Below are positions 1,521 to 63,454 of a stretch of DNA of 64,000 nucleotides, piece after piece. This DNA is from a virus. Its lineage: Duplodnaviria; Caudoviricetes. The DNA is taken from IMG/VR virus record IMGVR_UViG_3300025133_000020. The stretch is one strand, 5' to 3'. The translations under genes and the position numbers were made by a program. How positions within the stretch are numbered: the first letter of the stretch is position 1; every line of letters starts with the position of its first letter. The notes under the pieces were generated by a model, which saw nothing but the letters and a program-made list of their open reading frames with translations, ran no database searches and had not been told where the DNA came from.

Positions 1521-2066
1521 ATGAATAGGTTTTTAATATCATTATTCGTTACGTTAAGTCTAACATTGGGTTCATGTAATCTAATAGGTGATTTCAACGA
1601 CCTTAACGATACGGACGAGTTCACATTTACTGGTTCTTGGGTATTGCGTAGTGGTGATTTGTACATTGAGCGCCATTTCTCACATGAAGTAACTGAGTAT
1701 GACCACTTTGCTGATGGTGATAATAGCAGTTTAAGGGTTGGTGGTGCCACTTACCCTATTGAAACCTTAGTTAGAGACCATACCACATGGACATTTTTCC
1801 CTAACGGCACTATAATTGACGAATTCTGGTTGAATAATGATTCCATACATCCGTATGCGTTGACACAATTTGATTGGAACGATGTTAGCGTGATTGAATA
1901 TCCCGTTGGTACCACACAACTTGGTGGTTCTGCAAGACCTATAACGATGTTAAATTGGGATGGAAGTATTATGAAGGTAATTACACAGGAAACGTTAGCC
2001 TCTATTGATGGTTGGAATGTTACCTACTGGTCTATCTTACGATTTGAGAAGGTCGCTTCTTGGTAG
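1521..2066 (+). CDS. Lipoprotein (lipocalin-like beta protein)
   Basis: Signal peptide MNRFLISLFVTLSLTLGS-C with lipobox, acidic residues after Cys, FTGSWVL strand motif. Confidence 0.7.
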   Translation: MNRFLISLFVTLSLTLGSCNLIGDFNDLNDTDEFTFTGSWVLRSGDLYIERHFSHEVTEYDHFADGDNSSLRVGGATYPIETLVRDHTTWTFFPNGTIIDEFWLNNDSIHPYALTQFDWNDVSVIEYPVGTTQLGGSARPITMLNWDGSIMKVITQETLASIDGWNVTYWSILRFEKVASW

Positions 2067-2337
2067 GTCGTAGTTTTTTCTTACTACCTTTAGTTTCCGT
2101 TAAATAATCAGACATGACCTCAGTTATGATAGCATCATCAACGTTGAAAATATCCTTTAGGTGTTCGAACACTTGTTCTCTAATCCTAATCCTACCATAA
2201 TCAGACACATACATGACATACCCCATATCCAGAACAACACCTCTTTTGAACTTTCGGTTCTTTCGGTCTTTAATCTTATCGATGCTGAACGATTCGTATA
2301 GATATTCCTTAATAAATTGAGTCAATTGCGAATCCAT
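2032..2337 (-). CDS. Hypothetical protein (start MDSQLTQFIKEYLYES)
   Basis: ORF track 2032..2352; ATG at 2337 lies 3 nt after late motif TATTTATT (2341..2348, minus). Confidence 0.55.
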   Translation of the reverse strand: MDSQLTQFIKEYLYESFSIDKIKDRKNRKFKRGVVLDMGYVMYVSDYGRIRIREQVFEHLKDIFNVDDAIITEVMSDYLTETKGSKKKLRPTKKRPSQIVR

Positions 2338-2351
2338 ACAAATAAATATCA

Positions 2352-2744
2352 ATGACCATGGACGAAAAGACCCATATTAACTTCATGGGTATCATGGCTG
2401 AAATGACCGTAATGTATTATGACCATACATTCTGCGCTCATATGTTAAGCAAAAGAGGCTCTCAAGGGTCTTTTGAGGTGTTCTGCGGCAATATCGTGAG
2501 ATATCTGGGTAATGCACCCAATTCACATATTGTAAGCTCTGAGGGCGAAAGTGGGACTCTTATAGTTTGGTTAATGACGGAGCTTGAGGTGGAATACGGG
2601 TTGAATGAAGGGATGGCGGCAGAAATAGTGGTAGGTTTTTTCACCGAACGCTTTTACCGTGATATTTATAATGGACAAAGTATGGTAAATGATTACCTTT
2701 TCCCTAACGGGTATTATAATAGAAGAAACCAAGTTAATTTATAG
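2352..2744 (+). CDS. Hypothetical protein
   Basis: 130 aa ORF abutting thioredoxin. Confidence 0.6.
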   Translation: MTMDEKTHINFMGIMAEMTVMYYDHTFCAHMLSKRGSQGSFEVFCGNIVRYLGNAPNSHIVSSEGESGTLIVWLMTELEVEYGLNEGMAAEIVVGFFTERFYRDIYNGQSMVNDYLFPNGYYNRRNQVNL

Positions 2745-2746
2745 TT

Positions 2747-3049
2747 ATGACAGTAACAGACGCAAACATAGAAGAAACCATCAAGGATGGTATAGTATTA
2801 TTAGACTTTTGGGCTGAATGGTGTGGTCCTTGCCGAATATTGGCACCGATTATATCAGAGATTGAAACTGATAACCCCAACGTAAAGGTTGGTAAGGTAG
2901 ATGTAACCACAGAATCCAGAGCAGCCGCTAAGTTCGGTATAAGAGGAATACCAAAATTGGTATACATGAAGGACGGCAAAGTGGTTCATGAGGCTGTTGG
3001 TGTTCAACCAAAAGGTGTCATCCAAGCAAAATTAAATGAAATTGCTTAA
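2747..3049 (+). CDS. trxA: Thioredoxin
   Basis: LLDFWAEWCGPCR active site, cis-Pro motif GIRGIP. Confidence 0.97.
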   Translation: MTVTDANIEETIKDGIVLLDFWAEWCGPCRILAPIISEIETDNPNVKVGKVDVTTESRAAAKFGIRGIPKLVYMKDGKVVHEAVGVQPKGVIQAKLNEIA

Positions 3050-4182: not shown

Positions 4183-5604
4183 ATGGGTAATAAATCCACC
4201 GACAAACGTATCGAGTATCTTATCAAAGAGTTCAATGTTTTTGACATTGATGACGAAGATGAGGTGTTGGGTGAATACGGAGAAGAAGGTTTCGAGAGTA
4301 TTATACAGGTGCAAGACCCTTTGGATGATACTATCATAGCCTATCATTCAGAGAAGTACCGTAACGAACGCTCAACCAAGATGACCAAAAAGGTTTCTGT
4401 TGAGGTTACCTTACTTGGTCGTATGATTGCGGCTGACCCCACCAATAACAAGATGTTCGTGCAGTGGATGCTTAAGGTATTCACCAATATGCTAAAGAAC
4501 GGTAGTGATAATGATGCCATTCGTTTCGCCTGTGAGGATTTGGTTATAGCCAAAGAGTATCTTGAGGTATTCGAAACCAATAAGCGTAAACGGAACTTCA
4601 CCAAGTATTGCAAAGCCAATTTCAATCTTAATCATATCAGGGATTATACTAACATTAACCAGTATAATAACCTATCCGAATTATTTGATGCCGTTGACCC
4701 ATTCGTTGAGAAGGACGTATCTGGTCTTAAACGAGCCATGCAACGATTTGTTGATATGCGTGAGGCTAAGATAACGTTCAAAGACCGACATTTCATGGTG
4801 TATACGCCTTTAACTAAAGAGGCTGCTACGGTATTTCATAAGTTCACCAAGTGGTGTACAGCAATACCATCACAGACCAACTTTAGGCAGTATACCACAC
4901 ACAATAGACCTGATGGTAAACCATCTAAACTGTATGTTATCATACCGACAGACTTATTTGAAGATGTTGACTCCGAATTGTATCAGATACATTTTGAGAC
5001 CAGTCAGTTCATGGATAAATCGGATAGACCAGTAAAATCTCTGGACATATTCCATAAAAGCGAATCACTCAAGGAGTACATTATGAGCGAGTTGAGGGAA
5101 TTGATAGGAATGAGTAGTGGTACCAAAAGTAATACGTATATGAGTTGGTTATACAGGTTTGATATGGGGTACTTACTATTCGAACTTATGGATTACGACC
5201 TGACCAGCTTAAGAGTTAAGGATAAACCCATAGTGAGAATACCCAATACTATCGCCAATTATAATAGGTTGACCAGATTAGCATTAACTGGTTGTAAAAT
5301 CCTATCAGTAGACCCCAGTATTGGTGATTTAGAGAATTTGGAGCTATTGAGTTTGAATAGAAATAGTATATCAAAATTACCAGACACTATAGGTAAGTTG
5401 AAGAATTTAAGGTACCTATCATTAGGTGGAAACCCTATATTCGACTTACCAGAATCAATAAAAGAATTAGACAAATCCAAAGGTGGTAGCCTTGATTGGG
5501 TTAGTGTGGGAAATTCTTTATTAGCTGAGGACTTTAAAACATATTTACCTAATGTAAAGGTAATAGATAACGCAAAATATGAATACTACGATGATGGATT
5601 ATAG
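4183..5604 (+). CDS. Phage domain (WCT...YQxHFExxQFMD) fused to C-terminal leucine-rich repeats
   Basis: About four 23-aa LRRs of LxxLxLxxNxIxxLPxxIgxL type (LELLSLNRNSISKLPDTIGKLKNLRYLSLGGNPIFDLPESI). Confidence 0.8.
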   Translation: MGNKSTDKRIEYLIKEFNVFDIDDEDEVLGEYGEEGFESIIQVQDPLDDTIIAYHSEKYRNERSTKMTKKVSVEVTLLGRMIAADPTNNKMFVQWMLKVFTNMLKNGSDNDAIRFACEDLVIAKEYLEVFETNKRKRNFTKYCKANFNLNHIRDYTNINQYNNLSELFDAVDPFVEKDVSGLKRAMQRFVDMREAKITFKDRHFMVYTPLTKEAATVFHKFTKWCTAIPSQTNFRQYTTHNRPDGKPSKLYVIIPTDLFEDVDSELYQIHFETSQFMDKSDRPVKSLDIFHKSESLKEYIMSELRELIGMSSGTKSNTYMSWLYRFDMGYLLFELMDYDLTSLRVKDKPIVRIPNTIANYNRLTRLALTGCKILSVDPSIGDLENLELLSLNRNSISKLPDTIGKLKNLRYLSLGGNPIFDLPESIKELDKSKGGSLDWVSVGNSLLAEDFKTYLPNVKVIDNAKYEYYDDGL

Positions 5605-5749
5605 ATTAGTGAGTAGCGATGGTGAGACCATTAAAACAATTAGATGTAGACATATACGTGAAGCTACGGTTAGGTTTGCTGAGATGAAAAACCTAAAGGT
5701 CAGAGACCTGCTTAAAATCTTTTCTATAGAATGTGAGGGAAAAAACTGA
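5594..5749 (+). CDS. Small hypothetical protein (51 aa, not in ORF track)
   Basis: Manual translation MDYRLVSSDGETIKTIRCRHIREATVRFAEMKNLKVRDLLKIFSIECEGKN; overlaps the upstream stop. Confidence 0.5.
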   Translation: MDYRLVSSDGETIKTIRCRHIREATVRFAEMKNLKVRDLLKIFSIECEGKN

Positions 5750-5814
5750 CTTTTGCTTGTCTGCTTTATATTTATTTAAAGAAAAATAATTTTAAGCTTA
5801 AAAATTTTCCAGAC

Positions 5815-6021
5815 ATGTCAGATAAGAAAGTAAAAGTAGTTAGACTTAACGAAGAAAAAATAGTCGATATCATTGATAAATTGGCTACAGAAGAAGTAAA
5901 CAAGAGATTAGCAGAACACGCTAAAAGTGAGAAAGCTAAGTTAATTGAGGGTAAAATTCAAACCCTAACAGAGGAACTTAAGACGCTAAAAGGGGTCGAA
6001 GAGGTCAAAGTAAGTAAGTAA
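5815..6021 (+). CDS. Small coiled-coil protein, candidate head protein
   Basis: KVVRLNEEKI motif; late motif TATTTATT at 5769..5776. Confidence 0.6.
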   Translation: MSDKKVKVVRLNEEKIVDIIDKLATEEVNKRLAEHAKSEKAKLIEGKIQTLTEELKTLKGVEEVKVSK

Positions 6022-6037
6022 TTTACTAAACAATATT

Positions 6038-6066
6038 GAAAAGCCGAGGTGTTACCTTGGCTTTTC
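6038..6066 (+). terminator. Intrinsic terminator hairpin
   Basis: gaaaagccgaggt-gtt-accttggcttttc stem with one G-U pair. Confidence 0.75.
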
Positions 6067-6107
6067 GTGTTTTAAAATGCCTGGTTGTTTTACCTATAAA
6101 TTAAGAG

Positions 6108-6115
6108 TATATTTG
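6108..6115 (+). promoter_or_regulatory. Bacteroidota -7 element TATATTTG
   Basis: Followed by A-rich leader acaacaacaaacaa and ATG 6139. Confidence 0.7.
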
Positions 6116-6138
6116 CGGTAACAACAACAAACAATTGA

Positions 6139-6936
6139 ATGACAGACGAGAGAATTATACTCCCTGTTGGTAAAGCTTACCAACGAGTTATCCGTGAACA
6201 AAAGGAAGAAGAAGAAAAAGCTTCGGGAGTAACCCCAATCTGGGAAGGTATCGATAGAGATATATCCAACGCTATTGTCAAACCGATAGAGCGTAGTTTA
6301 GCCAAAGAAATAATTGAAGAGTACGAGTGGTTAGGTTGTATGCCTGCCGTTGCTTATTACTATTTTGGTATCTTCTACGATGGTGTATGTGCTGGTGTAA
6401 CCGTTTTCAGTAAGGATTACATTGAAAACCTAGGGCACTGGGATAAATACCATTACACAGGTAGAATGTTATTGCTTAGTAGAGGGGTTTGTGTCCATTG
6501 GGCGCATCCCCACTCTGGCTCAAAACTAATAATGGAGAGTATAAAGCAATTACCACCAGAATATGACGTTATAACGGTAACGACTGACCAAGCTGCTGGT
6601 GAGATAGGTACAATATACCAAGCTTGCAACTTCACTTACATAGGTAGTATGCGAGAATCCAACCCCAACATAAAGAATACGAAGCCCAAAGGTAGGTTTG
6701 GTGTTAGAATCGTAACTGATAAGTACCCGAACGGTAAAATCTATGGCGCCAGAGCCATGAGAAGTAAAGTAGGTAGTCAGAAGAAAGAAGACATACTGGC
6801 AATGTTCCCAGATGCGGTCTTCGTACCTCAATATAATAAACATAGGTATTTCTACTATCGTGGTAGCAAATCCAATCGTAAATTCCTTAAGAAGCAGATA
6901 GCACATATGATAAAACCTTACCCAAAACGGAGTTAA
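6139..6936 (+). CDS. mom: Mom-like (GNAT-fold) DNA modification protein
   Basis: AKEIIEEYEWLG, FGIFYDGVCAGVTVF, LSRGVCVHW, TDQAAGEIGTIYQACNFTYIG and KHRYFY match Mu Mom family motifs. Confidence 0.7.
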   Translation: MTDERIILPVGKAYQRVIREQKEEEEKASGVTPIWEGIDRDISNAIVKPIERSLAKEIIEEYEWLGCMPAVAYYYFGIFYDGVCAGVTVFSKDYIENLGHWDKYHYTGRMLLLSRGVCVHWAHPHSGSKLIMESIKQLPPEYDVITVTTDQAAGEIGTIYQACNFTYIGSMRESNPNIKNTKPKGRFGVRIVTDKYPNGKIYGARAMRSKVGSQKKEDILAMFPDAVFVPQYNKHRYFYYRGSKSNRKFLKKQIAHMIKPYPKRS

Positions 6937-58111: not shown

Positions 58112-58810
58112 TTATTTAACTTTATTATTATTCTTATACTCTACTAATTTAGGTATTATTAAGTCTAAGTAAAGTTTAAATTCTAATTCATTCATCATAC
58201 CTTTAAACGAATTTATAGCGTATGACGCTAATACCACATTATTTTTAGTGTACCCTAACATGGGGTCTAATCGCTCAACACTTATACTATCAAATTGGTG
58301 GCATCCTTCGTTATGTTTAATCTCAACATTAGTATAATAACATTTATGATTTTGTTTAAGTAAAGTCTCGTATAAAAAGGTTTTAGGTAGGTTAAATTCT
58401 AACCCCATTCTTTCCGACTTCCTTTTCAAGCCTGACGTTTTATTCCTGAGATAAACTTCTAAGCTAGTTTTTAATAATTTGGATTTCTTTTTGTACCCAC
58501 GTTTCACCGAATCATAATTACTAAAACACCCTTTACAACATTTTTGGTAGCCATCGAAGGTGCTTCTATTTTTAGAGAATTCCGACAACTCTTTGCGTTG
58601 TTTACACTTAAAACATTTCTTTTTACCGTCTATAATTGATTTACATATATGTTTCCGTTTGGCTTCCCTAAATCGTTTGTTAGCTTTCACCCCACAATCA
58701 GAACAAACACATACCACTGGTTTTTTACTACCGTATGTTAAACCACTAACAACATAACCAAATTCTTCAGTTGTTTCCTTTTCTTGTATTATCCATTGCC
58801 CATAACTCAT
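58112..58810 (-). mobile_element. Free-standing HNH-like endonuclease with zinc fingers, downstream of dut
   Basis: CSDC, CFKC...CCKGC; CYYT...SVERLDPMLGYTKNNVV...NSFK; late motif TATTTACT 58825..58832. Confidence 0.75.
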
Positions 58811-59490: not shown

Positions 59491-60058
59491 ACTCCAATAA
59501 TCTTTTCTTCTCTTCCATTATTGCTAGGTCACTGGCTTGGCTCAGTATGATACCTAACGTGTTAGTATGGAACCTTGCTTGTTTATCATCGTCCGTTTTA
59601 TCGTAGTTGATAATAGCTTGGTATTCATCGTCCGTAAACCGAACACCGTTATCCACAGCATACTTTATTGAACGCTCACCCACGTGTAGCGCCACAAGGT
59701 CGTTAGCGAACTCATACATTTGCCCTAACTTATCTTTATGCCATTGTGATGTGTTCTCAAGGAACATAAACGTCTTACCAATCTGGAATAAGCATGCTAC
59801 CTTTACAACAGACGCTAATGGTTGTTGCATATCTTCTGGTAGTATTTCATTTAGCTTACAAGCGTAATACGTAGTTCTAAGCGTGTGGTCTATTAGACCA
59901 CCTTTGAACGCATTGTAAGAATCCAGTTTTGTTGTAGCGGGTGCAGCTATGATGTCGGCACCTAAGAAGTTCATTAACTCTTCGGTCATGAACTCATACT
60001 TTTCACCAGTATTAAAATACTTGGTGGCATTAGATTTGATTTTCTCTTCTGTTAACAT
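59483..60058 (-). CDS. HD-fold (YhaM-like) protein
   Basis: APA...AFKGGLIDHTL, HVGERS; -7 element TATATTTG at 60089..60096. Confidence 0.65.
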   Translation of the reverse strand: MLTEEKIKSNATKYFNTGEKYEFMTEELMNFLGADIIAAPATTKLDSYNAFKGGLIDHTLRTTYYACKLNEILPEDMQQPLASVVKVACLFQIGKTFMFLENTSQWHKDKLGQMYEFANDLVALHVGERSIKYAVDNGVRFTDDEYQAIINYDKTDDDKQARFHTNTLGIILSQASDLAIMEEKKRLLEYA

Positions 60059-60124
60059 GTTGTTTGTTTTGTTTGTTTGTTATTATAACAAATATACGCA
60101 TTTTATTTGGGAAAATCAACCCTA

Positions 60125-61399
60125 TTATGCAGGTTCTTTAATTGCTTCTACTACTTCTGTTAACTTAGTCATGTATAATTCTCGCCTTGTATCTGAGGTA
60201 CTATCAGTGCTGTATGTATCCTTAACAGTCTCATATAGATTATTAGCCAATAGCTCAACCTTTTCTGGGTTCTGAATTAGGAACTTGATGTGTTGGTACC
60301 ATTGTTTGTGGTTCTTGTTCGTATCCACCAATAAAGCGTTAGCCTCATCATTATACCCACCACCATATTCTCTAGCATTCGTTAGGTCAATAGTGTAAGG
60401 ACCGAAATCCTGAGCAATAATAGCCTTCTTATGGAAACCAGATTCAATCACCTTCAATTGGCTCTTAACCTTATTGAACATATTCGTGTACAACGGAGCT
60501 AATGAAATATCAAATAGGTTATAGTTGGATGCGTAGCTTGTGATAGGCTTCGTCCAAACCCTTCTATACGGTTCATTATCAACATTTTCATAGACACTAT
60601 TAACCTTAAACTTATGAAGGAAATCCTTATATTCTGGACTCACAATCTTGAAGTTATCCGTGAATATCTTTTCATACTCATACCATACACTCTCTTGCGG
60701 TTGTATAGGTCTCTGAGATTGCTGACCAGTTTTCTCATCGATTGTAGTCACATTACCTCTAAGGTCGTAACCACATAGCACGAATTGTACTTTGTCCAAT
60801 AACCCGTCAGATTTTACCTTTTGTACTACACCTTTCAATAATTTAAGGTCTTCCAAGTGGGAGCTACCACCCAACCATCCGATTCTTAGTCGTTTGGATT
60901 CAATTGGTTTTGGTGTGTATTGTTTTTCGTTGGGGTCGATAGCATTCGGGATAACATAGATGTTATCATTCATCCTATCCATCTCTTTAGCGAAGATGTC
61001 GGTAGTTGTGATAATATTTCTAGCGTGTTTAAGGTTGCTGGCAATCTTCTTATCCAACTTAGACTGAATTATCAGTTTATGTGCTGGATGATGTGTTCCT
61101 GGTGCCCAGTGGTCATCTACATCCATGAAACTAAGAATATTAAGCTCATCCAACCGTTCCAGTAATTTCTCCATCCCGTCATAATCACCTAACGTTCTAT
61201 GGTAATGAACTAAGTCAAACCCTTTTAACCATTCGTCTGATTTAAGGTCTGGTTCGTATTCAATTTCTACGTGAAAATCATCTGGATATTTTTTTTCCAG
61301 TGAAATATGGGGTTTAGTAGAGCGAAAATATGAGACGCCAGTGCGGTCAGATGGTACTACTAAAACTTTAATTTTTCTATTTAAGGGGTTTACTATCAT
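60125..61399 (-). CDS. GT-B glycosyltransferase whose 5' end appears to be supplied by the adjacent endonuclease element
   Basis: PSDRTGVSYFRS, DVDDHW, IPNAID, IGWLGGSSHLEDL, DISLAPL..FNKVKSQLKVIESG; start overlaps the endonuclease stop by 23 nt. Confidence 0.9.
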   Translation of the reverse strand: MIVNPLNRKIKVLVVPSDRTGVSYFRSTKPHISLEKKYPDDFHVEIEYEPDLKSDEWLKGFDLVHYHRTLGDYDGMEKLLERLDELNILSFMDVDDHWAPGTHHPAHKLIIQSKLDKKIASNLKHARNIITTTDIFAKEMDRMNDNIYVIPNAIDPNEKQYTPKPIESKRLRIGWLGGSSHLEDLKLLKGVVQKVKSDGLLDKVQFVLCGYDLRGNVTTIDEKTGQQSQRPIQPQESVWYEYEKIFTDNFKIVSPEYKDFLHKFKVNSVYENVDNEPYRRVWTKPITSYASNYNLFDISLAPLYTNMFNKVKSQLKVIESGFHKKAIIAQDFGPYTIDLTNAREYGGGYNDEANALLVDTNKNHKQWYQHIKFLIQNPEKVELLANNLYETVKDTYSTDSTSDTRRELYMTKLTEVVEAIKEPA

Positions 61400-62120
61400 A
61401 TCTATTTATTATTTCTTTTATTATCATTATACCGTTTTGCTTGTAATCGGTTTCCCATATTACTTCACAATGGTAACCATTTTTTTTTCCTAAGTAAAGC
61501 TTATCCTTATCGTATTCCCAAATTTCTTTAGCTGACTTATTTTTTTTCTTATTTACATAAGTCTCGGAATATTTGTTAGGGTTACAATGCCAATAATCAC
61601 CATTATATTCAATCAATAAGTTAAATTCAGGAATGTAAATATCAAAAATTTTACCTTCCACTATATGGTTACCATTGGCTTCAATATTGATACTACCCAA
61701 ATAATTAAGTATTTCATCCTCAGCTTTAGACCTATTATACCCCTTTATCTCCCCATTATTGATACGGCTCTTCATTAATTCACTCAACTTGAGTCGTGTG
61801 TTTTCCATCTTACCACTAGCCCATAGTTTAGTTTTCATATCACTAAACATTTTGCGATATTTAGGTTCTGACATGTGAGCACTATTAGTGTGACCACTTT
61901 TACTAATCGATATAGCTATTTTTGTTTTTTCAGTGTGTCGCTTATTATAAAATGGGTTACCCTCACCTATTTGTAACTTTAACGAACAAGGTTTACAGAT
62001 ATTCTTTTTCTTTAAATTACGTTTTAACGCCCATTCACTACTTGCTGAACACTCAATATCTGTATTACAACTATTACAAATCCAGTTACCATACCATCTA
62101 TTATTAACCTCTCTAATCAT
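61377..62120 (-). mobile_element. EDxHD/Vsr-like (DUF559-type) homing endonuclease with zinc finger and NUMOD3
   Basis: CNSC...CKPC; GEGNPFYNKRHT; SKAE, FDIYIP..NLLIEYNGDYWH, DKDK, GYHCEVIWETD. Confidence 0.85.
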
Positions 62121-62132
62121 AATACGTTTTTA

Positions 62133-62140
62133 ATTAAATA
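62133..62140 (-). promoter_or_regulatory. Late-type promoter TATTTAAT for the endonuclease and glycosyltransferase
   Basis: In the 41 nt between the stub stop and endonuclease ATG. Confidence 0.55.
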
Positions 62141-62161
62141 TGTGCCAACGTACTAAAAGTC

Positions 62162-62236
62162 TTAGTAACTTACTCCCGTTCTGTCGCTCGGTACGACCAG
62201 AACTTTAACTTTTCTTCCTAATGGGTTCTTTATCAT
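62162..62236 (-). pseudogene. Orphan 24-codon 5' stub of the glycosyltransferase (MIKNPLGRKVKVLVVPSDRTGVSY*)
   Basis: Manual translation; 21/24 aa identical to the N-terminus of 60125..61399. Confidence 0.9.
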
Positions 62237-62293
62237 GATATCAATTATGTGGTAAATCTAATGATACTGAAGTTATAAGTAAAGTTAATCCAT

Positions 62294-62314
62294 AAAAAAA
62301 GGGGCTTTCGCCCC
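62294..62314 (-). terminator. Intrinsic terminator
   Basis: Minus strand ggggc-gaaa-gcccc followed by U7. Confidence 0.9.
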
Positions 62315-62344
62315 ACTTTTAATACTTCGTTACCTATATTAACC

Positions 62345-63028
62345 TTATTTTTTAGGTATAATACCTTCCTTCATTAAGGTTGTTATGGTGTCTTTGATTG
62401 CTTGCTCTCTAATATTCTTGGTCATAATAGTCATCATCTCATCCCGTACCATATCCCTAATCATATTTTCAGACATTTTAACCGTCTTTGGTGCTTGCGC
62501 TGGAACCTGCTCGTTCAATTGTTGTCTTGATTGTAATGGTCTCCCTTTTGATGCTGGTTTTGCTGATGTGCCTGCGTAATCCATAAGGTCAGTTCTGACA
62601 TTCTTCATAGCATCCTCACTAAGAGGTACCACTGGGGCATCAGTAGACGTTGGGAATTGCTTCATAGCTTTCTTAACCGCATCTGGCATACCAGAGTTAT
62701 CAACTAATGCATCCGTAATCGGTCCTGCAATCGCTGGTTTAGGTGCTTGAGTTTGTGGTTGCATCATTTGTTGCTCTCTAATGTGAGGTGGCAACTCTTC
62801 CAAATAGTTAATATCTGGTGCTGGTTGATATTTTTGTTTAGCCCCTGCAACTGAGTCACCCATTGTTTGGGTTGAATTCGAATTACGTGGCGCTAATGGT
62901 TCGTTACGCATACCTGTACCAACATTCTTTGCTTTCTCAGCAGCAAATTGGTCAGCAGCAATCATTACATCACGGCTTTCACTTAGTTTAGTTAAAAATG
63001 ATAAAGGTACGTCTGTTAATTGTTCCAT
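62345..63028 (-). CDS. Pro/Gln-rich hypothetical protein
   Basis: SGMPDAVKKAM..FP motif; operon context. Confidence 0.7.
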   Translation of the reverse strand: MEQLTDVPLSFLTKLSESRDVMIAADQFAAEKAKNVGTGMRNEPLAPRNSNSTQTMGDSVAGAKQKYQPAPDINYLEELPPHIREQQMMQPQTQAPKPAIAGPITDALVDNSGMPDAVKKAMKQFPTSTDAPVVPLSEDAMKNVRTDLMDYAGTSAKPASKGRPLQSRQQLNEQVPAQAPKTVKMSENMIRDMVRDEMMTIMTKNIREQAIKDTITTLMKEGIIPKK

Positions 63029-63037
63029 ATTCTTGTA

Positions 63038-63454
63038 TTATCCATAATTGTTAAAGTCAGCAACTTTGATATCACCCGTCATCTTTTTATCCCCATTAGG
63101 GTTAAATCCTGACGACCTATCTCCTAACGCAAATAAGTCTGGTCTACCATTGGCTTTCATAACTGGTTCCCAATTAGTAATCCTATCCACTCTGAATAGT
63201 TTCCATCCTTGGACACCACCACCACTTGTTACACCTTTGGTTTGGAATGCTCTGATAACTTCGTTACCTAAACCACCTTCCTTTCCTCTCGTGTGACCGT
63301 GTGCGTATACTTCGATGATTCTCTCACCACCACCTGTATTATCGTCACCAGCATAGGTAATCTTAACCCTATAGTGTGATTCTATAGCTTCAAAGATAAC
63401 ATCCTTACTAACTCCCTCTAATATAAGGCTTTCATATAAAGAGTAAAGCTTCAT
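63038..63454 (-). CDS. WYL-like domain protein
   Basis: VKITY...ERIIEVYAHG...IRAFQ...WKLFRVDRI. Confidence 0.7.
   Translation of the reverse strand: MKLYSLYESLILEGVSKDVIFEAIESHYRVKITYAGDDNTGGGERIIEVYAHGHTRGKEGGLGNEVIRAFQTKGVTSGGGVQGWKLFRVDRITNWEPVMKANGRPDLFALGDRSSGFNPNGDKKMTGDIKVADFNNYG

Follow-up and report, generated by a model that had tools for sequence, protein, structure and literature searches.

Organization of the glycosyltransferase locus

The DNA analyzed here is a stretch of 64,000 nucleotides (nt) from the Caudoviricetes virus record IMGVR_UViG_3300025133_000020, a large marine phage (hereafter, the window), in which the start of a predicted glycosyltransferase (GT) gene is present twice, as a short stub and as the beginning of the complete resident gene, with a free-standing homing endonuclease gene (HEG) between the two copies (Table 1). 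All coordinates are positions in the window, and the whole locus lies on the minus strand. The resident GT is uninterrupted and encodes 424 amino acids (aa; 61399..60125, -). The HEG occupies an open reading frame (ORF) of its own, in a reading frame different from that of the GT and with neither an intron nor an intein around it, and a cmscan search of 60000-63100 returned no match to an intron or other RNA family of Rfam. An earlier note on this DNA, made from the letters alone, had described the stub ORF, the 41-nt gap, the HEG, the GT start and the 23-nt overlap and had held that no intron core fits; all of this read the same way in the present analysis.

Comparison of the stub with the resident GT start showed that 21 of the 24 aa are identical, the changes being K3V, G7N and V10I. 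Within codons 13-24, 16 of 36 nt differ over 10 codons and every change is synonymous, with AGC/TCT, AGT/TCA and AGA/CGC switches among them; within codons 1-12, 8 of 36 nt differ and a silent change is found in one of the nine conserved residues. The protein identity, the differences in codons 13-24 and the single silent change had been given by the earlier note, and a recount returned the same figures. In a six-frame self-comparison, this pair was the strongest short protein-level duplication of the window (87.5% over 24 aa, E = 3e-10), and no second stub-type duplication was detected in the whole window. An exact 27-mer of the stub had no copy elsewhere in IMG/VR, and megablast of the region against 50,697 phage records gave no match to a cultured close relative. 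Logan contigs from an independent run (X2) cover 61114-62700 and span both junctions with zero differences, and X3 contains 62126-62285. A HEG-less joint was not seen in the contigs of four runs, contigs being assemblies that drop rare variants.

Table 1. Features of the GT/HEG locus, listed in the direction of transcription. Coordinates refer to the 64,000-nt window.
Feature	Position	Strand	Remarks
Upstream gene, 227 aa	62345..63028	-	No family match; synteny kept, relatives only 26-39% aa identity
Intrinsic terminator of the 227-aa gene	62291..62314	-	GC stem 62314..62301 and T run; aligns with terminators 5' of empty alleles
Native GT promoter/leader region	62237..62290	-	TTTACTTATA motif (62283..62274) and CATAAT motif, both common to HEG-less relatives
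Stub: native GT codons 1-24, then TAA	62162..62236	-	Putative remnant of the recipient gene start
Spacer, 41 nt, probable left end of the cassette	62121..62161	-	Junction TAC TAA GAC TTTT...
Free-standing HEG, 247 aa	61377..62120	-	Zinc finger, NUMOD3, helical linker and predicted C-terminal VSR/EDxHD-type nuclease domain
Overlap of HEG 3' end (stop codon included) and resident GT start, 23 nt	61377..61399	-	
GT 5' tract, codons 1-36, apparently imported	61292..61399	-	69% nt identity to L040 vs 81% in codons 37-170
Candidate endonuclease target region, putatively resistant spelling, codons 13-28, LVVPSDRTGVSYFRST	61316..61363	-	Placed from the ends of stubs and from mini-inserts of relatives, both between codons 23 and 25
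Native GT body (putatively GT-B/GT4-like)	60125..61291	-	dN/dS 0.06 vs L040

Origin of the stub and of the resident 5' tract

About 115 syntenic loci, the majority of them HEG-less, were compared (IMG/VR and metagenome scans; designated by L numbers), and best matches were ranked over about 150 loci. The gene order UP138-UP227-GT-DN191-dUTPase is found without a HEG in most of L001-L025 and L040-L116. In the empty (HEG-less) alleles, represented by L040, L041, L051, L076 and about 55 others, the upstream terminator and the TTTACTTATA leader lead directly into the GT. The stub and the terminator/promoter region upstream of it align with these empty alleles, and the sequence before the resident GT start is coding sequence of the HEG.

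Judged by the GT body, L040 is the closest relative (85% aa identity); it is HEG-less and sister to the window on the GT tree. The stub matches L040 at 58 of 72 nt (81%), equal to the level of the gene body. The resident GT has 69% nt identity to L040 in codons 1-36 and 81% in codons 37-170 (Fisher p = 0.009), and codons that differ synonymously number 19 of 24 in resident codons 13-36 compared with 46 of 107 in body codons 37-170 (p = 0.0015); the dense differences end near codon 37, and the added divergence of the 5' tract is nearly all synonymous. The best match of stub codons 13-24 was again L040 (83%), and that of resident codons 13-36 was the L076 family (83%), with L040 among the worst (65%). 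The identity levels to L040 and the best matches of each copy argue that the stub is the vertically inherited, native gene start and that about 110 nt of the resident gene (codons 1-36) are a foreign tract contiguous with the HEG. Divergence that reaches about codon 36, 12 codons past the duplication, is what a co-conversion tract from double-strand-break repair would give; such co-conversion of flanking markers has been reviewed (PMC2988022).

The earlier note had proposed an insertion after codon 24 by an element that carries a synonymously different 5' end, and had suggested looking for empty alleles at orthologous loci. Such alleles were found and align with the stub context, and the nearest of them, L040, is closer to the stub than to the resident copy, in support of the proposal. 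Its description of the N-terminus as recoded stands as far as the synonymous difference is concerned; targeted recoding confined to the 12 duplicated codons was rejected, since the diverged tract reaches about codon 36, and the same spelling also occurs in HEG-less L076.

At the site, the resident copy reads TCT, CGC, TCA, CGC and TCT where stub-type and L040/L041-type alleles read AGC, AGA, AGT, AGA and AGC. This TCN/CGN spelling class was also found in L049 (which has a HEG remnant), in part in L117, and in the HEG-less L076 family. Its occurrence in other loci, including HEG-less ones, suggests that the spelling marks a donor or resistant allele and not necessarily a change made in the window genome, that is, an allele class travelling with, or surviving, the element. 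Between HEG-less L076 and L041, about 15 of 36 nt differ by eye in codons 13-24, and few in codons 1-12.

The TTTACTTATA motif stands at the matching position in L008, L040, L050, L051 and L076 (with one mismatch in L041), about 40-50 nt 5' of the GT start codon. A CATAAT motif lies about 12 nt upstream of the GT start and forms, with TTTACTTATA, a candidate phage promoter; the genes here lack Shine-Dalgarno (SD) sequences. The 41-nt spacer contains a promoter-like TTGGCA-18-TATTAT.

The endonuclease and the glycosyltransferase

The N-terminal part of the HEG product contains a CxxC...CxxC zinc finger and NUMOD3, a region that aligned with the I-TevI DNA-binding domain (1i3j, E = 1e-4) in a PDB sequence-profile search. 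An AlphaFold2 (AF2) model reached a pLDDT of 80, with residues 131-240 above 90, and Foldseek matched its C-terminal domain to the I-Bth0305I catalytic domain 3r3p (TM 0.72 by target, 26% identity) and also to Vsr (1cw0/1vsr). At the sequence level, no Pfam family was found for the nuclease domain and the PDB sequence-profile search fell short of I-Bth0305I; the match came from the fold search alone. The tblastn matches of the HEG were phage genes annotated as VSR endonuclease or Hef-like homing endonuclease. Residues D160, E171, D175, H178 and D204 are invariant in a six-member alignment (A1) of the window HEG with relatives and are candidate catalytic residues. The zinc finger/NUMOD3 region, the fold match of the catalytic domain and the annotations of the phage matches together support the prediction that the 247-aa protein is a homing endonuclease of the VSR/EDxHD type, the type that the earlier note had named.

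The window HEG lacks the N-terminal helix-turn-helix (HTH) of about 55 aa that is present in five aligned relatives and starts at their internal Met. Its closest full-length relative, L117/118 (63% identity), is 255 aa long and apparently a short form too.

The GT matched Pfam Glyco_transf_4 weakly (E = 3e-4, under the gathering score) and PHROG 7162 'glycosyltransferase' with E = 7e-37, and its body is under purifying selection in the comparison of the window with L040 (Table 1). An intein of the LAGLIDADG type (about 350 aa, C...HN↓S) is present in several GT homologues, within a second conserved motif (GWLGGS↓SHL; arrows mark junctions here and below): L026:~5290-6380, L076:~1970-3000, L077, L106, L108, L117-L122 and L128. 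Because both this intein and the HEG cassette occur, the GT gene of some phages hosts two different selfish elements.

Recurrence and exchange of the cassette

The stub-HEG-GT layout was found in at least eight related phage lineages, with homologous junctions and with stubs that are lineage-specific and often decaying. The full set of stub, junction, HEG and GT is present in L026-28, L054, L117/118, L119-121 and L128. Visibly scrambled stubs were observed in L055, L056, L123 and L124, and the L026 stub has a P to A change. The stub/HEG junction of the window is homologous to those of L026, L054, L055, L056, L117, L123, L124 and L128 (consensus TAY TTW RAY TTTTT). In L026, the N-terminal extension has six residues in the stub and thirteen in the resident copy.

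On the GT tree, HEG presence has to change at least 7-9 times, and the HEG is scattered among phages that are otherwise syntenic. All 80 of the 80 best HEG homologues in IMG/VR have a GT immediately downstream, and HEG and GT overlap at every junction read, namely in the window (23 nt), in L018 (14 nt) and in L026 and L029 (47 nt).

Loci L026 and L054 share 88-100% identity (mostly at least 93%) along about 600 nt that comprise the HEG 3' half and the GT 5' end, compared with about 72% in the GT body and flanks and 70% in the stubs. This limitation of the near-identity to the HEG 3' half and the GT 5' end indicates that the cassette has probably moved between lineages recently, with a right boundary 30-40 nt beyond the site. 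A similarly sharp tract boundary was observed between L018 and L091, where divergence is limited to the site region. Between L049, with its HEG remnant, and its HEG-less sister L005, differences are found almost only in a site patch of about 45 nt, in which AGC/AGA/AGA/AGC is replaced by TCA/CGT/CGC/TCC.

In the distant HEG clades (L018, L029, L129 onwards), a motif scan detected no stub; there, the HEG is located behind the upstream terminator, in overlap with the GT start. In these stub-less clades (L018:5205-5252; L029:625-655; L129, L133), a conserved ..CCTTTTGAC..TATTTATAAT.. element abuts the HEG ATG. It may be a sigma-70-like promoter, in which case a leaderless mRNA would be possible. 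The bases before this element (GTG TCC TTT TGA) resemble the final stub codons.

Short inserts at the same site in relatives

The stub ends after the Y/F codon that follows G-V-S/G, and the relatives carry short inserts at exactly this place. Such mini-inserts are present in 40 of 57 distinct loci with a HEG or HEG remnant and absent from all 59 HEG-less ones (Fisher p about 2e-16). In a further locus, an ordinary extra codon stands in frame and contains no stop. Examples are L008:6058-6063, L026:4784-4791, L029:1638-1643, L050:3002-3006, L054:3064-3071, L091:395-408 and loci among L117-L163. The window is the sole clade-1 cassette found without an insert.

The 24 distinct inserts are 5-14 nt long, and each opens with TGA, TAA or TAG right behind a GGY or AGY codon. 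Twenty-two of them close with a synonymous copy of the preceding codon; in the two exceptions AGT is matched with GGC, a combination that G-U pairing would permit. With the insert left out, every one of these genes encodes the invariant protein (..GVG↓KFRS.. or ..GVS↓YFRS..), and the GT bodies behind the inserts are intact and subject to purifying selection, with dN/dS of 0.06-0.19. The take-off codons are never GGA, GGG or TCN, all of which are used freely by uninterrupted alleles. A GGG glycine codon stands two codons 5' of the take-off in 33 of 41 insert-bearing alleles vs 9 of 77 uninterrupted ones. The resulting GGGG(T) run, 2 nt ahead of the take-off codon, is reminiscent of the SD-like sequence that stimulates +1 frameshifting in prfB.

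Read-through of the inserts by stop reassignment or a suppressor was rejected, since all three stops are used and the length of 14 of the 24 types is no multiple of three; apart from the inserts, HEG and GT ORFs are open under table 11. The possibility that the insert-bearing GTs are pseudogenes was also rejected, as none of the GT bodies has a further disruption and dN/dS stays in the range given above. The inserts look like short programmed ribosomal hops, whose role at the DNA level would be to break the endonuclease target. Their location points to codons 23-25 as the place where the endonuclease acts, and their presence in HEG-bearing loci suggests that HEG-bearing genomes must alter the site.

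Remnants of the HEG 3' end only were observed 5' of the GT at L008:5895-5960, L049:1440-1790, L050:2880-2935 and L091:205-354. They appear to be stages of HEG loss, and the mini-insert is kept in three of the four. At L026:4140-4150 (also in L027, L028 and L125-127), a 1-nt deletion is present in the HEG GEGNPF motif, with a G8 run vs the relatives' GGGGAGGGG; the L026-type HEG is probably frameshifted and dead, while cassette, stub and 8-nt insert persist.

Proposed mechanism and alternative explanations

The region is very probably a homing-endonuclease cassette inserted into the gene that it targets. According to this model, the endonuclease would cleave HEG-less GT alleles where the gene is most conserved (..PSDRTGV[S/G]↓[Y/K]FRS..), and the break would be repaired from a HEG-carrying genome. 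The right end would invade the donor GT at a point about 35 nt downstream from the break, the GT 5' end and the HEG of the donor would be copied by synthesis, and the left end, finishing at about codon 24-25, would be joined at the left border of the cassette; once the donor has a stub, the stub could act as the left homology arm. The gene would be restored without splicing and transcribed from the native promoter in the order stub, HEG, GT, with the GT starting within the last codons of the HEG. The resident copy would have to escape cutting. It is unlike the stub-type site at the 16 of 36 nt in codons 13-24, it also differs in codons 25-36, where the comparison is with the native-type L040 allele because the stub ends at codon 24, and every AGY/AGR serine and arginine codon would have been exchanged for TCN/CGN. 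Most related cassettes would split the site by a stop-plus-repeat insert of 5-14 nt that requires ribosomal hopping, and the stubs would be neutral, decaying relics. Putative protection of the resident copy from its own nuclease has no more than indirect support. The earlier note had also proposed that the arrangement hinders precise excision and couples GT translation to the element, and both effects may apply.

On balance, we favor the wider view that the GT/HEG system is a second, independent natural family of programmed translational bypassing, in which the hop would restore the protein and the insert would break the element's own target. The window variant would then achieve the same immunity by synonymous respelling, with the stub serving as left homology arm and the cassette homing in the manner of an intron, without splicing.

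Several points weigh against the cassette model. We infer both where the endonuclease cuts and that the resident spelling is immune. The TCN/CGN spelling is not confined to the element, being shared with HEG-less L076-type alleles; identity of the resident tract to L076 is no higher than 81-83%, and its excess over the body is not significant (p = 0.10); and the statistics are based on a tract of 72-108 nt. The nearest HEG protein is only 63% identical (70% over the partial L049 remnant), and the window HEG, lacking the HTH, may be inactive. Since no near-identical HEG-less relative or donor of the window phage was found, recent import into the window lineage and older inheritance followed by later conversion both fit the data.

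An ancient insertion that goes back to the common ancestor of this GT clade and was inherited vertically, with all HEG-less relatives having lost the cassette by recombination between stub and resident copy, synonymous differences due to drift and a HEG that is a relic, is unlikely. The divergence of the HEG between lineages (56-63% aa) is near that of the GT (58-65%), the junction is homologous across all clade-1 cassettes, and the window HEG is N-terminally shortened, all of which would fit. Loss by such recombination predicts, however, that codons 25-36 of L040 are of resident descent, and these are instead the most divergent (22 of 36 nt identical; 11 of 12 synonymous codons differ). Moreover, 10 of the 14 nt differences between stub and L040 are synonymous, suggesting that the stub was coding for most of the time, and both the recent L026/L054 exchange and the at least seven independent losses required speak against vertical inheritance. 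A local tandem duplication of the GT start when the endonuclease landed upstream, followed by neutral drift with neither a donor allele nor selection on spelling, is very improbable. The clade-specific N-terminal extension MIxNPLxRK, common to both copies, is in its favor, but all 16 of the 16 differences in codons 13-24 are synonymous, conserved residues are kept by the stub, and the divergence goes on beyond the duplication to codon 36. Body-level identity to L040 is seen for the stub and not for the resident copy, and the same architecture occurs with unrelated stubs in other lineages.

We give hardly any credence to a stub that works as the first exon or segment of the gene, linked to codon 25 through splicing, protein splicing or ribosomal bypass over a long range, even though it is an intact ORF with the native start and a stop right behind the conserved Tyr codon, and relatives seem to use short hops at the same codon. 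Just 41 nt of non-HEG sequence are available and no intron family was found, the resident GT has a complete and conserved N-terminus, the gap would span 837 nt, and the stubs of relatives decay, as described above. The chance that the locus is an assembly chimera of two co-occurring strains, conceivable for a metagenome-derived sequence, is practically nil: the identical contigs that span both junctions come from a second sample and study, and the same architecture recurs in many independent assemblies. The independent run with identical DNA across both junctions thus excludes a chimera.

Relation to known systems and significance

HEGs that land in essential or conserved ORFs are thought to require an intron, an intein or a split-gene solution. 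In Aeromonas phage Aeh1, nrdA is split by mobE; as in the window, the HEG lies within a conserved ORF without an intron or intein, whereas both halves of nrdA are functional and assemble and the upstream fragment of the window is redundant. The mobA and gene 60 bypass cassette of T4-like phages has reportedly been treated by Bonocora et al. in PNAS in 2011, and a HEG with a duplicated gene end is said to have been described in Allomyces atp6 by Paquin et al. in 1994.

The nearest described system is the MobA element of T4-like phages, a HEG within its target ORF with an element-encoded diverged copy, HomR, which shares 67-81% nt identity with the parental sequence; in T4, protection against MobA comes from the gene 60 bypass of 50 nt (Manning & Atkins 2022, bioRxiv 10.1101/2022.08.31.505936). 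The earlier note knew of no phage case of this kind, and the diverged target-segment copy HomR is such a precedent. As in the window, a free-standing HEG interrupts a conserved part of the target gene, a diverged target segment with the cut site comes with the element (here, resident codons 1-36 would travel with the HEG), the downstream ORF begins within the HEG in another frame, a change of the site prevents self-cleavage (in the window, presumably so) and the endonuclease decays progressively; bypass-type inserts at the site are shared with the relatives of the window. The MobA element differs in its HNH nuclease and topoisomerase target, compared with a VSR/EDxHD-like nuclease and a GT. 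Its parental segment is deleted, whereas the window keeps a 24-codon stub, and the gene is split into two functional subunits with CTE/NTE tails, whereas in the window the whole N-terminus would be replaced. The MobA bypass is 50 nt long; the window has none, and the 5-14 nt inserts of its relatives are too short for an internal stem-loop or SD.

Intronless homing by the T4 seg and mob genes likewise involves a free-standing, promoter-sharing HEG with its cut site in a neighboring conserved gene, spread by double-strand-break repair with co-conversion, and a donor allele made resistant by polymorphisms (PMC2988022). There, however, the HEG stays intergenic and no gene fragment is duplicated, whereas the left junction of the window lies inside the target ORF. 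For the leftover fragment, the closest analogue is that already pointed out by the earlier note, the fungal mitochondrial HEGs with duplicated gene ends (C-terminal duplications of atp6 and cob with GIY-YIG/LAGLIDADG ORFs; PMC6279837), which move with the adjacent end of the target gene and leave the displaced native end as a pseudogene fragment. They concern 3' ends, often fused in frame to the HEG, whereas the window has a 5' end with a restart, and they belong to other nuclease families and to an organelle, not a phage. The I-Bth0305I/EDxHD family and the 'fractured gene' endonucleases (PMC3239194, PMC2677866) resemble the window HEG in catalytic fold and are likewise HEGs of phages and marine metagenomes; I-Bth0305I is intron-encoded and the fractured-gene endonucleases lie between split-intein halves, and the window HEG uses neither. 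Neither this GT/HEG system nor short hops linked to a HEG turned up in the literature searches.

The window element would thus represent a further route open to phages, in which a replacement gene end is carried along and the old end is left behind, a route previously known for the 3' gene ends of fungal mitochondria and partly for the T4 MobA element. The approximately 57 HEG-bearing and 59 HEG-less alleles of a single site amount to a natural experiment on nuclease self-avoidance, and appear to show two alternative immunity devices, respelling and mini-inserts. If the inserts are decoded by hopping, the near-isolation of T4 gene 60 as a natural bypass in bacteria and phages would end, a graded series of gaps (5 to 14 nt) would become available for mechanistic work, and the view that bypassing evolves as endonuclease self-immunity would gain support.

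A second endonuclease-like gene in the window

A second endonuclease-like gene lies downstream of the dUTPase gene of the window (58112..58810, -). A tblastn search of the syntenic L001-L025 flanks gave no counterpart, and the gene has no duplicated gene fragment beside it. It encodes 232 aa with several CxxC pairs and matches PHROG 'endonuclease VII'/HNH with E = 2e-21.

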